Positions 26,757-37,094 are shown, counted from the first letter of the stretch. The stretch is 64,000 bases of DNA from Pseudomonadota bacterium (GCA_046765675.1 JBKPOR010000004.1:7740-71739), one strand, 5' to 3'. The notes: generated from the sequence alone by a model not told the origin. A program made the numbers and translations.

Positions 26757-27104
26757 TCAGGCCTTTTCGAGCGTACACTGCAGCGGGTGCTGGTTTTCCC
26801 GAGCGAAATCGATCACCTGGGTGACCTTGGTCTCAGCGACTTCGTAGGTGAAGACGCCGCACACCGCGACGCCCTGCTGGTGCACCTGCAGCATCACCCT
26901 CGTCGCATCCTCAATGCCCATTGAGAAGAAGCGTTGAAGGACGAGCACGACGAACTCCATCGGGGTGTAGTCGTCATTGAGCATCAGGACCTTGTAGTTC
27001 GAAGGCTTCTTCGTCTTGGGCCGGGTGCGCGTCGCGACGCCGGTCTCGATCTCGTCGATCCCGTCTTCGTCACCATTGGCCATGATGATCTTGTCGATGC
27101 TCAT
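26757..27104 (-). CDS. clpS: ATP-dependent Clp protease adaptor ClpS
   Basis: [35 protein letters not shown] motifs. The start could also be at 27083. Confidence 0.95.
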
Positions 27105-27164
27105 CACGCTATAAAATATGGCAGGCTCGAAAAGTGCCGCAAGGCGGCTTCGCACGCTTGCCTT

Positions 27165-27200
27165 AAAAAATTGGCGGCCGCCCTTGGGGGAGCGGCCGCC
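27165..27200 (-). terminator. Rho-independent terminator downstream of the phasin gene
   Basis: GGCGGCCGC/GCGGCCGCC stem (27173-27200) followed on the minus strand by a T6 tract (A6 at 27165-27170). Confidence 0.8.
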
Positions 27201-27232
27201 GGGTTCGTCACCTGAACTAGGAGGGGAGAGGG

Positions 27233-27943
27233 TCAGGCAACGAGAGTATTGAAGCGCTCGGCATTCGCCGTGGCGCGATTCGAAAGCGGCTGGAACGCCT
27301 CGCCGGCAAGCTTCACCAGCGATTCGGTCAGCTTCGAGCTCTCGGCGATCGCGCGGTCGAACGACGCACGAGCGAAGTCGCCCTGGAGCTGCAGATATTC
27401 GGTCGGCGACTTGGCCTCGGCGAGCGAACGGATCGCGTCCGCGGCCTGCTCGAAGCTCTCGCGGCCCTTGCTGACGGCGTCCTGACCGATCGCGCGAGCG
27501 CCTTCGCTGGCGACTCGGCCGGCCTCGACCACCGCCTCAACGTTGGCGCGAGTGAGATCGGCGAGCTCTTCAGCAACCTTCTGGCTGCGCTTGACGATCT
27601 CCTGGCTGCGCTCACTGGCATCGCTGAAGATCGACTGGAACGGCGCGAAGGCCGGAACTTCGAAGAAATTGGTGTTGGTCACGGTTTCAATCCTTTGTTT
27701 GGCCGGGCGCGCGTTCTTGCGGGCGGCGGCACGATTCTTGCGGCGGACAGACTTGGCGCGGCGGGAAGCGGTCTTTTTGGCAACCGGCTTGCGCTTGGCC
27801 CGGCGGGTGATGGAAGCACGCTCCACCTTCGCCGCCTTCTTGCTCTCCTTAGCGATCGTCTCGACGGTGTCGGCAATCGCCACGGCGACTTTGGCCGGAG
27901 CCTCGGCGACAGCCTGAGCTTCAACCTTGGTTTCGTCTGTCAT
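27233..27943 (-). CDS. phaP: Phasin family protein with Ala/Lys/Arg-rich N-terminal extension
   Basis: C-terminal phasin domain ([26 protein letters not shown]); RBS GAGGA before ATG 27943; PhaR-like boxes upstream. Confidence 0.85.
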
Positions 27944-27964
27944 TAAGTATTCCTCTGAATTTGC

Positions 27965-28022
27965 TGCAGTGCAACATAAACGTTGCGCCGCACCATTTCA
28001 AGCGTGTTTTTTGTGCAGTGCG
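27965..28022. promoter_or_regulatory. Three candidate PhaR boxes (TGC-N3-GCA)
   Basis: TGCAGTGCA 27965-27973, TGCGCCGCA 27984-27992 and TGCAGTGCG 28014-28022, directly upstream of the phasin gene. Confidence 0.6.
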
Positions 28023-28069
28023 TCAACCCGCCGCTTGACGGCCACGGCCCGACCGAAGCAAGAGCGGCC

Positions 28070-28723
28070 ATGGACGCTTCGACCGACGCTCTCGCTCGCC
28101 GCCGGCGCGGCCTGCTGATCGTGCTTTCATCTCCGTCCGGCGCGGGCAAGACGACGATCTCGCGGATGCTGCTCGAATCGGATCCGGAAATCACGATGTC
28201 GGTCTCGGCGACGACGCGTCCCAAGCGCCCCGGGGAGACAGATGATGTCGATTATCACTTCGTCAGCGACGCAGAATTCGGTCGACTGATCGACGACGGC
28301 GAGTTCGTCGAATGGGCCCCCGTGTTCGGCTTCCGCTACGGCACTCCGAAGGCACCGGTAAAATCCGCGCTCCGCGATGGCCGCGACATCTTGTTCGACA
28401 TCGATTGGCAGGGAACGCAACAGCTCCATTCGGCGATGGGCGAGGACCTCGTTCGGATTTTCATCCTTCCGCCTTCGATGGAAGAACTCGAGCGGCGCCT
28501 TCACTCTCGGGCAACCGATGCCGAGGAGGTGATCGCCGACCGGATGCAGCGCTCGACCGGCGAAATCAGCCACTGGGCCGAATATGACTATGTCCTCATC
28601 AACCGCGACATGGATGCATGCCTGGCCGAGGTTCAGACGATTGTCGCGGCAGAGCGCTTGAAGCGTGCTCGGCAGATCGGCCTGGTGTCCTTCGTACGCG
28701 ACCTGATCGGGCCGCAGCACTAG
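28070..28723 (+). CDS. gmk: Guanylate kinase
   Basis: LSSPSGAGKTT P-loop, SVSATTRPKRPGE, YGTP, DIDWQG, YDYVLIN. Confidence 0.96.
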   Translation: MDASTDALARRRRGLLIVLSSPSGAGKTTISRMLLESDPEITMSVSATTRPKRPGETDDVDYHFVSDAEFGRLIDDGEFVEWAPVFGFRYGTPKAPVKSALRDGRDILFDIDWQGTQQLHSAMGEDLVRIFILPPSMEELERRLHSRATDAEEVIADRMQRSTGEISHWAEYDYVLINRDMDACLAEVQTIVAAERLKRARQIGLVSFVRDLIGPQH

Positions 28724-33666: not shown

Positions 33667-34107
33667 TCAGCGCGACATCCTGAGCCCAGGACCGAACATC
33701 GTGTCGCGTTCGCCCTCGAGGGTGAAGCCGCATTTCTCGTAGAACCCGCGCGCTGTCGGATTCGCCGTCACAGTCAGCGAGACTCCCTGCATCCGCGCTT
33801 TGTGCGCGGCCGCTTCGACCAAGGCGGCGCCGATGCCGCGCTTCCAAAGGCGCGGCTCGACAAACAGCCCGTGGAGCTCCCCGGCAATCAAGGTTGCAAA
33901 GCCCGCAACGCGTTCGTCGAGCTCGGCGACCAGCACCTGGCCCTCGGCGATTTGCTCGGCCGGAACCTCAATGACTTCGGGATGAGCTTCCAGCTGCTGT
34001 CGATATTGGGGAAGCGCCAGCGAAGCTCGTCGCTGGAGTGCTTCGAGGTCGAGGCGCTCTTCCGGCCGGGCCAGGCGGATCGTCAGCGCTTCAACGCGCT
34101 TTGACAT
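33667..34107 (-). CDS. GNAT family N-acetyltransferase
   Basis: LFVEPRLWKRGIGAALV and ARGFYEKCGF motifs. Confidence 0.9.
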   Translation of the reverse strand: MSKRVEALTIRLARPEERLDLEALQRRASLALPQYRQQLEAHPEVIEVPAEQIAEGQVLVAELDERVAGFATLIAGELHGLFVEPRLWKRGIGAALVEAAAHKARMQGVSLTVTANPTARGFYEKCGFTLEGERDTMFGPGLRMSR

Positions 34108-35866
34108 AGGATCCGGGCGCGTCCTCGATGGCTTTCAGCTTGCCCTTGCCGGGGACGCGCGCACCCGCCGCTTTCACTGTGGTTGAATCTTGCTTCGTGA
34201 GCCAGGCGAGCCAATCCGGCCACCAGCTGCCCTTGTGCTCCGTCGCGCCTTCAACGAACGCATCCAGCGTCTTCAGTGGACGATCGTTGACCCAAAATTG
34301 ATATTTGTTCGCTGCCGGCGGGTTCACGACTCCGGCGATGTGCCCGGATCCTGCCAGAACGAACCTTTTCGGTCCGGCGAAATGGGTCATGATCTTCCAC
34401 ACGCTCTGCGGCGGGGAGATATGATCCTCACGCCCGGCCTGGACGTAGGTCGGAGTCTCGACCGTATCGATGTCGACCGGGACTCCGGCGACGGAGATCC
34501 CGCCCTTCACCGCAAGCTTGTTCCCCTTGTAGAAGCTTTCGAGATAATCGCGGTGCCACGGCGCCGGCAGGTTGGTCGTGTCCGAATTCCAATAGAGGAG
34601 GTCGAACGGGGCCGGCTCCTCCCCAAGCAAGTAATTGTTGACCACATAGCTCCAGATGAGGTCGCGGCCGCGCAGCAGGTTGAAGGTCGCCGCCATGTAC
34701 CGGCCATCGAGATAACCTTTCTCCTTGGTCAGCTCGTCCAAAAGTCCCATCGTTTCGGGGCCCGTGAAGAGCTTCAGGTCTCCGGCCTCGGTGAAGTCCA
34801 CCTGAGCGGTCAGGAAGGTCGCGGACTTGACCTTTTTCGCCTGCTTCTTGGCCTGAAGATAGGCCAGCGTCGCCGCCAAGGTGGTCCCGGCAACGCAATA
34901 TCCGATCGTGTGGACACTCTCGACCCCGAGCAGGTCGCGCACCGTGTCGATCGCGTCGATCTGTCCCTCGAGCACATAATCGTCGAGCGTGGCGTCGGCG
35001 ATGCTCTCGTCGGCCGACTTCCAGCTGACCATGAACAAAGTCACCCCGTTGTCGACGCACCATTTGACGAAGCTTTTTTCCGGGTTGAGATCGAGGATGT
35101 AGAAGCGGTTGATCCACGGAGGGAAAATCACGACCGGAGTCTTCAGTACCTCGGGCGTCGTCGGGGTGTACTGGATGACCTGGTAAAGCCTCGTTTGCTT
35201 GATCACCTTGCCCGGGGTGGTTGCGAGGTTCCGGCCGACTTCGAAAACGCCGGGCTTAGTCTGGGTGAGCTGGCCCGCCGCAATGTCCTTCAGCATGTTG
35301 GCGAGGCCCTTCAGCAAATTCTCGCCGCGGCTCTCGATCGTCTTCTTGAGCACCTGGGGGTTGGTGAGCGCGAAATTGGACGGGCTCATCGCGTCGACGA
35401 AGCTGCGGGTCGCGAAGCGCAGCCGCTCGCGCATGGTTGGGTCGAGGTTCTCGATCTCGTCGACCGTCCCCAGAAGCTGGTCCGACATCCGCAAATAGGT
35501 CTGCCGAATCGTGTCGAAGATCGGGTTGTCATGCCATTCGGGCGCGGCGAAGCGCCGATCCTTTCGATCCTTTTCCTGAGGGCTCGGAGCCGCAACCGCT
35601 CCGCCGAGCATCTTGCCCCATGCTTCGAGGCCCTTTGCCCATGCCTGCGCGCCCGCGGTCATCAGCGCCATCGGGTCGGCCGCGCCCGCCTGCTCGCCAA
35701 AGCCGAAGGCGGGCTGAGACCAACCCGGAAACGGCTGGTCTTTCTTGAGGCTCGCCGCCCAGAACTCCATCAGCATCTGCTGGACGCGGCCCATCACCAG
35801 CGTCCAATGCTGCCAGTCTTCGAGCGTCGGGATTGCGCTCTCAGCCCTGTTCGACTCCTCTGCCAT
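34091..35866 (-). CDS. phaC: Class I poly(3-hydroxyalkanoate) synthase
   Basis: PPWINRFYILDL, lipase box GYCVAG, WNSDTT, SGHIAGVVNPP, GSWWPDW motifs; start MAEESN (ATG 35866). Confidence 0.95.
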   Translation of the reverse strand: MAEESNRAESAIPTLEDWQHWTLVMGRVQQMLMEFWAASLKKDQPFPGWSQPAFGFGEQAGAADPMALMTAGAQAWAKGLEAWGKMLGGAVAAPSPQEKDRKDRRFAAPEWHDNPIFDTIRQTYLRMSDQLLGTVDEIENLDPTMRERLRFATRSFVDAMSPSNFALTNPQVLKKTIESRGENLLKGLANMLKDIAAGQLTQTKPGVFEVGRNLATTPGKVIKQTRLYQVIQYTPTTPEVLKTPVVIFPPWINRFYILDLNPEKSFVKWCVDNGVTLFMVSWKSADESIADATLDDYVLEGQIDAIDTVRDLLGVESVHTIGYCVAGTTLAATLAYLQAKKQAKKVKSATFLTAQVDFTEAGDLKLFTGPETMGLLDELTKEKGYLDGRYMAATFNLLRGRDLIWSYVVNNYLLGEEPAPFDLLYWNSDTTNLPAPWHRDYLESFYKGNKLAVKGGISVAGVPVDIDTVETPTYVQAGREDHISPPQSVWKIMTHFAGPKRFVLAGSGHIAGVVNPPAANKYQFWVNDRPLKTLDAFVEGATEHKGSWWPDWLAWLTKQDSTTVKAAGARVPGKGKLKAIEDAPGSYVKAR

Positions 35867-35882
35867 CGCGGCTATGTAGGCA

Positions 35883-37094
35883 ATGATGCGGAGCCTTACA
35901 CTAGCGCTGAGTTTGGCCCTCTCCGCTTGCGCTACGATTCCACCGACGGAGCCGCCGGTCCGAGCGCAGGTCGGTGTTGCGTTCGACCGCAATGGCGAGA
36001 TCGCCACCTTTGCAGAGGGAATCGCCGACCCGCAGTCCGGCCGGCGAGTCACCATCGACGATCCGGTGCGGGTCGCCTCGATCAGCAAACTGGTGACTGC
36101 AATCGGCGTGTTGAGACTTGTCGAGCAGGGCAAGCTCGATCTCAACGCCGATGTGTCGCAAGCCCTCGGCTGGGAATTGCGCAACCCGAAGTTCCCTCAG
36201 CGGGCGATCACGCTGGGGATGCTGCTCGCGCACACAAGCTCGGTACGCGAGCATGACGACAATTACGTCATTCCGTTGGGCAGTTCACTGCGGGACGTCA
36301 TGCGCGACCCGAAGAACTGGGACCCGAAGCACGGTCCAGGGGACAATTATTTCGCCTACGTCAACCTCAACTATCCGATCATCGGCTCGATCATCGAGAA
36401 GACCACGGGCGAACGCTTCGACGTCTGGATGCGCCGCGAGGTCCTCGAGCCGATGAAGCTCGACGCCTGCTACAACTGGCCGACCTGCAGCGACGCCGTG
36501 ATCGCGCGCGCCGTGGAGCTCGACTCGCCCGACGGCAAACCGCAGAAAGACGACCTGCACGGTGTGCGACCCGCCTGCCCAGTGTTCGTCAAGGAAGGTG
36601 AACCGTGCGACCTCGGGCGCTGGAAGCTCGGCGATAACGGCTCGCTCTTCTCGCCCCAGGGCGGGTTGCGCATCTCCGCGCGGGGGCTGGTCCGGATCGG
36701 GCGGATGCTTCTGAATCGCGGAACGCTCGACGGAATTCGAATTCTCTCGCCCCAATCGGTCGATACCTTGCTCGCGCAGGTCTGGCAGTTCGACGGCAGC
36801 AACGGACTGACCGAGGGCGGCTTTTATTGCAGCTCCGGTCACGGAACCCACCAAATTCCGACGCGCGTTCCCGGGTGCCGCGACAACATGGGAACCGGCG
36901 GTGCCGTTCTCGTCGGCCATGCCGGCGATGCCTATGGGATGAAGGCAGGCCTGTGGGTCGACCGCGCCCTCGGGCGCGGCATCGCTTACTTCGTGACAGG
37001 CGTCCCCGACGAAGCGCAGCGTGACGACCGCAGCGCTTTCACCGCGGCGGAAGCGCGGGCATTCCGCCGCACCTATGCCCTCCTCAAACGCTAA
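35883..37094 (+). CDS. Serine hydrolase (beta-lactamase family) lipoprotein
   Basis: Lipobox LSAC; SISK (SxxK), YVNLNY and GHAGDAYG motifs. Confidence 0.88.
   Translation: MMRSLTLALSLALSACATIPPTEPPVRAQVGVAFDRNGEIATFAEGIADPQSGRRVTIDDPVRVASISKLVTAIGVLRLVEQGKLDLNADVSQALGWELRNPKFPQRAITLGMLLAHTSSVREHDDNYVIPLGSSLRDVMRDPKNWDPKHGPGDNYFAYVNLNYPIIGSIIEKTTGERFDVWMRREVLEPMKLDACYNWPTCSDAVIARAVELDSPDGKPQKDDLHGVRPACPVFVKEGEPCDLGRWKLGDNGSLFSPQGGLRISARGLVRIGRMLLNRGTLDGIRILSPQSVDTLLAQVWQFDGSNGLTEGGFYCSSGHGTHQIPTRVPGCRDNMGTGGAVLVGHAGDAYGMKAGLWVDRALGRGIAYFVTGVPDEAQRDDRSAFTAAEARAFRRTYALLKR

Follow-up and report, generated by a model that had tools for sequence, protein, structure and literature searches.

Known systems for granule attachment and internal initiation

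Two granule-associated proteins, PhaM in Cupriavidus necator and PhaH in Caulobacter crescentus, fasten PHB granules to the nucleoid (PMC13052382, PMC3556143). PhaF of Pseudomonas putida is a phasin with a highly positive, histone-like, disordered arm, and this arm has been suggested to connect PHA granules with the nucleoid and to aid their distribution (PMC5658603, PMC13052382). PhaM, PhaF, and PhaH all bind the granule via the N terminus and DNA via the C terminus (PMC13052382). The tail of PhaM is rich in Lys, Pro, and Ala, and PhaM also activates PhaC (PMC13052382, PMC3556143). Caulobacter PhaC has an N-terminal Lys/Pro/Ala disordered region of its own, which makes protein contacts in granule initiation (bioRxiv 10.1101/2023.07.06.548030).

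Internal in-frame initiation is well described for other bacterial proteins. In beta-carboxysomes, an internal in-frame Shine-Dalgarno (SD) sequence and GUG give rise to CcmM58 and CcmM35, full-length and N-terminally truncated isoforms with distinct roles within one compartment (PMC13515050); ClpB, CheA-L/S, IF2, SpaO, and PBP1b also show internal in-frame initiation (PMC13515050; bioRxiv 10.1101/520783). Phasins are not mentioned in a review of alternative initiation (PMC13515050), and our full-text literature searches, which took in few of the subscription journals, found no phasin with an internal or alternative start or with an N-terminal tail.

Here we describe a phasin gene in a 64,000-nt stretch of DNA from a Pseudomonadota bacterium (GCA_046765675.1 JBKPOR010000004.1:7740-71739), which we call the window. 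The finding joins two known kinds, the tailed phasin and internal initiation, and is not a new principle. Like PhaF, the encoded protein consists of a phasin module fused to a strongly positive, histone-like arm. PhaF, however, belongs to the PF05597 family and carries a C-terminal arm of AAKP repeats, its untailed counterpart being encoded by a separate gene, phaI, whereas the protein described here is a Phasin_2 protein with an N-terminal arm of mixed Arg and Lys, located behind an acidic head, and its untailed form would apparently come from the same gene. The N-terminal PF05597 domain and the C-terminal AAKP-repeat histone-like domain of PhaF are both missing from the window protein, the arm in the window species being an Arg/Lys mix free of AAKP repeats, and no PF05597 (PhaF-type) phasin scored above the cut-off anywhere in the window's genome. 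PhaM and PhaH, which we compared by description, differ in being outside Phasin_2, in binding DNA C-terminally (PhaH with a helix-hairpin-helix domain), and in having no known second start. The arm of Caulobacter PhaC is N-terminal, basic, and disordered, as the arm here probably also is, but it belongs to the synthase, which is not known to have an alternative start.

The closest parallel is CcmM58/35, in which an organelle scaffold gene yields two isoforms by means of an internal start; the protein and the organelle are unrelated to those considered here, and the CcmM isoforms were shown experimentally, whereas we infer ours from conservation only. ClpB, CheA, IF2, SpaO, and PBP1b are similar in that an N-terminal domain is present in only one of the forms, but phasins and storage-granule proteins are not among them, and in no case is one product basic (pI 10) and the other acidic (pI 4.9). 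As in established proteoform pairs, the gene described here has an in-frame internal start with its own SD at functional spacing, and these signals are conserved beyond what the protein needs.

The phasin gene and its predicted products

The gene, its domains, and its two predicted initiation regions are as follows.

27233-27943, minus strand: phasin ORF, the coding sequence of the long isoform (236 aa, 25.6 kDa, pI 10.0, net charge +12)
27951-27955, minus strand: primary Shine-Dalgarno sequence GAGGA, with a 7-nt spacer to ATG 27943
27845-27943, minus strand: acidic head, Ala/Val/Glu-rich (residues 1-33, net charge -4)
27692-27844, minus strand: polybasic block (residues 34-84, 11 Lys and 12 Arg, net charge +22, pI 12)
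27691-27696, minus strand: internal Shine-Dalgarno sequence AAAGGA, with an 8-nt spacer to GTG 27682; it includes a rare Arg codon, AGG (Arg84)
27680-27682, minus strand: internal in-frame start GTG, which is Val88 of the long form
27233-27682, minus strand: coding sequence of the predicted short isoform (149 aa, 16.1 kDa, pI 4.9, net charge -5)
27275-27571, minus strand: Phasin_2 domain PF09361 (residues 125-223; 77.6 bits, E 8.9e-22, cut-off 24.9)

The long ORF starts with ATG at 27943-27941 and ends with TGA at 27235-27233. An initial annotation, made from the sequence, had described a phasin with a Lys/Arg-rich block at about residues 30 to 85, a GAGGA motif before the first start, and an AAAGGA motif before an internal GTG that would give a 149-aa product. 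When we reread the sequence, the ORF, its coordinates, and all of these motifs were exact; the block could be placed at residues 34-84, where 23 of 51 residues are Lys or Arg and the net charge is +22, and the phasin call was confirmed by the PF09361 match of 77.6 bits.

Profile searches also matched the protein to TIGR01841 (37.2 bits; cut-off 30.2), but scores for TIGR01985 (43.2 bits; equivalog cut-off 99.7) and for NF045536 (PhaP6; 24.9 bits; equivalog cut-off 100) fell below their thresholds. The protein is a member of the Phasin_2 family, yet no equivalog of the characterized alphaproteobacterial phasins. The polybasic block matched no Pfam family. A Pfam search with the N-terminal 87 residues (E up to 10) returned DUF4141 at a subthreshold 13 bits, which we rejected as noise.

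Structure prediction for the long form, based on an alignment of 23 sequences, gave a low-confidence model (pLDDT 56, pTM 0.23), in which residues 100-235 form two long helices, residues 77-98 form a predicted linker with the lowest pLDDT of the model, and the acidic head is predicted, with low confidence, to be helical. The polybasic arm is probably disordered.

The predicted short product is a phasin of canonical size. Its start would precede the Pfam domain by 37 codons, which falls inside the range of 26 to 68 codons for Phasin_2 proteins that stand alone in other alphaproteobacteria. Predicted short products are 145 to 164 aa long in all orthologues, and long products range from 225 to >300 aa. 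We considered outgroup phasins from other Sphingomonadales families (L026-L030) as a test of the ancestral phasin start and rejected them as distant paralogues (24 to 28% identity).

Genome context

The window's genome, which is 99.7% complete, has one Phasin_2 gene, one PhaC, and one PhaR; PhaC lies 7 kb from the phasin gene and PhaR elsewhere in the genome. Relatives in the databases are labeled Sphingomicrobium, and each of the 61 genomes that we sampled from this genus has exactly one Phasin_2 gene, always with the extended frame. The genes neighboring the phasin gene are clpS, a MurA-type gene, gmk, and an ATP12-family gene. Two neighbors deserve separate description:

34091-36184, minus strand: PhaC gene, with a PhaC_N domain at about 35057-35563
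26757-27155, minus strand: clpS (N-degron adaptor), immediately 3′ of the terminator that ends the phasin gene and in the same orientation

The 697-aa ORF listed for PhaC starts at TTG and is probably overextended; the likely start is at MAEESNRAES, for a protein of some 590 aa. An N-terminal arm rich in Lys, Pro, and Ala, such as Caulobacter PhaC carries, is absent from it. The GTG start listed for clpS is probably also too far upstream.

In two relatives the phasin gene is damaged: of L007 (G010:C56) and L105, one has an in-frame TAG within the phasin domain (..LTE*LVK..) and the other is frameshifted. These are either assembly errors in metagenome-assembled genomes or occasional pseudogenes of the sole phasin gene.

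Transcription signals

The region on either side of the gene contains the following signals.

27973-28001, minus strand: σ70-type promoter (TTGAAA at 28001-27996, 17-nt spacer, TATGTT at 27978-27973)
About 28025-28008, 27994-27981, and 27974-27961, minus strand: three TGCA-N-TGCA(A/G)CA boxes, putative PhaR operator
27165-27200, minus strand: strong intrinsic terminator (11-bp stem with 10 G-C pairs at 27200-27173, then a T-run)

The promoter is the sole promoter-like match in 27100-28150 (shuffled sequences gave a mean of 0.1), and both of its hexamers prove conserved when the upstream regions of 25 orthologues are aligned. The three TGCA boxes, which are conserved in the same 25 regions, lie upstream of the promoter, within it, and just downstream of it. 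The PhaR box of alphaproteobacteria has been described as "TGC-rich," or GC-N3-GC (PMC10888616); the boxes fit this description, and we regard them as a candidate PhaR operator with three sites. From its promoter and terminator, the gene appears to be monocistronic, and its leader would be some 20 nt long.

A separate short transcript from an internal promoter may be an alternative source of a short form. Our promoter search of 27100-28150 found no promoter within the coding region, and the DNA encoding the arm is too variable to hold a conserved one.

At the 3′ end of the gene, Val235, two codons before the stop (27239-27241, minus strand), is encoded by GTT in 17 of the 17 orthologues that have Val at this position, the usual Val codon being GTC; this synonymous freeze adjoins the stop codon and the terminator.

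Coding evidence for the N-terminal extension

High-GC genomes yield long spurious open frames, and the short product alone would be a complete canonical phasin. One might therefore propose that only the short phasin is functional, and that the upstream 87 codons are a noncoding leader, a GC-rich open-frame artifact, or a regulatory upstream ORF. We find this scarcely credible, because the upstream frame behaves as protein-coding sequence by several measures. Its amino acids are conserved among orthologues, beginning with the head motif M(A/T)DETK; dN/dS in the extension (0.25) is close to that in the phasin part (0.23); and GC3 is raised, standing above GC2. The polybasic block varies between species in both length and sequence but is strongly basic in every case, and the many length changes of the extension seen in ∼100 genomes are, every one of them, in frame. 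The extension also has its own initiation signals, an SD and ATG placed just 3′ of the conserved promoter: 24 of 25 orthologues have an SD-like motif ahead of the N-terminal start, and the pairing energies predicted for it run from -5.8 to -10.8 kcal/mol. There is no stop codon between the two parts, so any translation from ATG 27943 must yield the fusion protein. Judged by these comparisons, the N-terminal extension is genuinely coding and under purifying selection.

A conserved internal SD and start codon

We assembled orthologues from 24 genomes of the same genus and from 80 further loci in named genome records; 95 unique sequences were left once duplicates and truncated copies had been dropped, and identity to the window protein falls to ∼40% across the set. 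The internal SD and start are present in 25 of 25 genus orthologues. Of 78 additional loci, 76 have them in precisely the aligned column, and in the other two they lie one codon upstream. The codon at the junction between arm and phasin is ATG in 49 and GTG in 46 of the 95 unique orthologues, and is never anything else. On a tree built without the junction columns, it has switched between ATG and GTG at least 10 times independently and has never changed to a codon that is not a start. GTG makes up only 22 to 30% of Val codons, both in these genes and genome-wide. In eleven other conserved Val columns GTC predominates or codon use is mixed, and one further column is all GTT; the junction is the only Val column that is all GTG, and Met is the sole alternative residue there.

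The SD is conserved in the same manner. A purine-rich GGA core lies 6 to 10 nt 5′ of the junction codon in all 95 sequences, at a distance of 8 nt in 77 of them, and the nucleotide profile at positions -14 to -9 reads A-A-R-G-G-A. This segment is encoded by 31 different tripeptides (ERI, QGI, KRT, EGT, PKE, KKG, RKE, TEE, and others), and the motif shifts its codon register among orthologues; on the tree, we counted 46 tripeptide changes at the SD, and the GG core was kept through all eight changes of the -4 codon. In the loci of the MAYDFN sequence type, GAAGGGA or GAAAGGA stands 8 nt ahead of the internal ATG. Since the AAAGGA motif keeps its nucleotides while register and amino acids change, a constraint at the protein level does not explain it. 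Codon choice gives the same picture: where the -4 column encodes Arg, the codon is AGG in 16 of 16 cases, compared with none in 18 other conserved Arg columns and 5.3% of Arg codons genome-wide. Among 25 genes, 24 of the 35 occurrences of AGG, AGA, GGA, or GGG fall within the four-codon SD segment.

The surroundings of the site are also distinctive. GC content in the 50 nt around it is 0.36 to 0.56, versus 0.57 to 0.70 for the coding sequence, and predicted RNA folding (60-nt segments) is among the weakest at this site in nearly every orthologue (mean z, +2.1). Predicted pairing of the internal SD with the anti-SD is about -5.6 kcal/mol, a value that the primary SD also reaches in close relatives. 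Strings that resemble an SD are not rare in these GC-rich genes, where ∼12% of positions pair equally well with the anti-SD; for this reason the argument rests on the conserved combination rather than on SD strength, and the internal site is the sole alignment column in the gene with a conserved pair of SD and start. The initial annotation had named conservation of the internal SD and GTG as a check on its idea of two isoforms. Conservation turned out to be complete across ∼95 species, and it is one of nucleotides rather than amino acids.

These are signatures of selection, acting at the nucleotide level, that maintains an internal translation-initiation region; on this comparative evidence, the combination of SD and start is far beyond chance. 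A different reading is that only the long protein is made and that the purine motif with its Met or Val codon serves as a programmed ribosome pause that aids folding at the domain boundary, or encodes residues that the linker needs. It has been suggested that rare codons and SD-like stretches within genes delay the ribosome where one domain ends and the next begins, and the internal site does sit in the linker predicted by our model (residues 77-98). We nonetheless consider this reading very unlikely. A pause needs no start codon at SD spacing, yet ATG or GTG is found in 95 of 95 sequences, and the junction is never GTC, GTT, GTA, Ile, or Leu; the SD nucleotides are kept in spite of the changes in register and amino acids; and the site lies in an AT-rich, unfolded pocket, a hallmark of initiation regions.

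Codon usage differs on the two sides of the internal start: the fraction of major codons (TCG and CCG are among the preferred codons here) is 0.73 downstream of it and 0.63 upstream, a difference seen in 22 of 25 genomes. This fits, weakly, with extra translation of the shared part, but it may have no other cause than looser constraint on disordered regions, where bias is often lower, and the sequences share part of their phylogenetic history.

One probable mRNA and two predicted isoforms

Comparisons across the genus and beyond show that the upstream frame and the internal SD with its start are both kept by purifying selection. We consider it very probable that two isoforms are made from the one gene; the two-isoform proposal of the initial annotation has thus passed its comparative test, the products themselves being predicted from conservation. 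Our best explanation as a whole, to which we give a probability of roughly 0.6, is a dual-start mRNA that encodes a coat form and a tether form. A conserved, probably PhaR-controlled promoter would give rise to a single monocistronic mRNA with two in-frame initiation regions. Initiation at ATG 27943 would produce the 236-aa long phasin, with an 87-residue extension made up of the acidic head and the +22 polybasic arm, and initiation at AAAGGA-N8-GTG (27682), in an AT-rich, unstructured stretch located precisely where the arm meets the phasin, would produce a 149-aa acidic phasin. Because the arm is N-terminal here, an internal start can remove it. The short form would be the bulk, abundant granule coat; the long form, probably minor, would join it on the granule by means of the phasin domain that both contain, and its basic arm would anchor the granule to a polyanion, in all likelihood the nucleoid, in a PhaF-like manner with inverted topology.

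The function of the arm is the less secure part of this explanation. Given two isoforms, we lean slightly, by analogy with the tailed proteins described above, toward the basic arm being a nucleoid or DNA tether. The arm might instead act in the manner of PhaM or Caulobacter PhaC, by binding or priming the synthase and nucleating nascent granules through condensation, or, in a variant of this idea, it might bind another polyanion such as polyphosphate or RNA. In PHB systems, disordered regions rich in Lys, Pro, and Ala are responsible for the binding of synthase to phasin and for synthesis that starts with no lag (bioRxiv 10.1101/2023.07.06.548030). Polyphosphate granules are positioned by tails of the AlgP type (PMC13052382), and conservation of the acidic head suggests that the arm contacts a particular protein and does not act by charge alone. 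Moreover, the PhaC of this organism lacks an arm and a PhaF-type phasin is absent, so the phasin arm could supply the function. On the other side, such tails in PhaM and PhaF bind DNA nonspecifically (PMC13052382, PMC5658603). Sequence does not separate a synthase role from DNA binding, and the two are not mutually exclusive, since PhaM does both. We regard a role of the arm other than tethering as a serious though less likely rival, and continue to favor coat and tether forms from one mRNA.

Tailed Phasin_2 proteins in other lineages

When Phasin_2 proteins were sampled across the class, basic arms at the N terminus turned up repeatedly, in several families. Among deep-branching relatives, Stakelama flava and loci L113, L023, and L024 have N-terminal arms of the AKP type, similar to PhaF and histone H1. 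The Ala/Lys/Pro-rich N-terminal arms of the orthologue-like phasins of S. flava CBK3Z-3 (L110) and of L113 (genome G295), the latter from the window's own family, are very long, at 170 to 300 aa, and in both an internal SD and ATG lie ∼38 codons before the domain; arm length thus varies more than 3-fold when these two are included, while the predicted short product stays at ∼145 to 155 aa.

Two loci of a different Phasin_2 lineage, L120 and L129 (genomes G293 and G168), have an AKP-rich N-terminal arm of ∼160 aa and an AAAGGA motif 8 to 9 nt before an ATG that is 9 codons ahead of the phasin domain; their sequences may reflect an independent origin of the dual-start design. L119, L123, and L128 (genomes G073, G333, and G223) encode tailed Phasin_2 proteins with AKP-rich N termini of ∼150 to 170 aa, and no convincing internal SD and start was found in any of these three. 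Their genomes have three Phasin_2 genes each, versus one in Sphingomicrobium, and this pattern hints that an internal start takes the place of a second gene for a phasin that lacks the tail.

More tentatively, dual-start tailed phasins could be an unrecognized, widespread alphaproteobacterial design for PHB, in which a PhaR-controlled gene sets the ratio of coat to tether and ATG/GTG switching is the dial for that ratio; such a single-gene design would replace a separate PhaP plus PhaF, PhaM, or PhaH genes. The idea is, in our estimation, still somewhat doubtful.

Significance

To our knowledge, the number, position, and inheritance of PHB granules are understood in only three model bacteria, each of which has a dedicated tether that binds DNA with its C terminus. 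In the genus studied here, which comprises small-genome sphingomonads of soil and sea, a single phasin gene seems to encode both coat and tether by choice of start. Current annotation pipelines give the long form alone, and the presumably dominant 16-kDa phasin is consequently absent from protein databases. The locus would also offer a very clean genetic handle: two silent mutations would remove the short form and one start-codon mutation would remove the long form, making their functions separable in cultured strains. Cultured relatives with this architecture include Sphingomonas hankyongi SE220 (L106), S. agri LMG 29563 (L054), S. humi JCM 16603 (L103), Sphingomicrobium aquimarinum (L107), and S. 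nitratireducens (L109). If our explanation is true, a tether arm can sit at the N terminus, and phasins would join CcmM in the small group of bacterial organelle proteins for which the choice of start site determines the stoichiometry.
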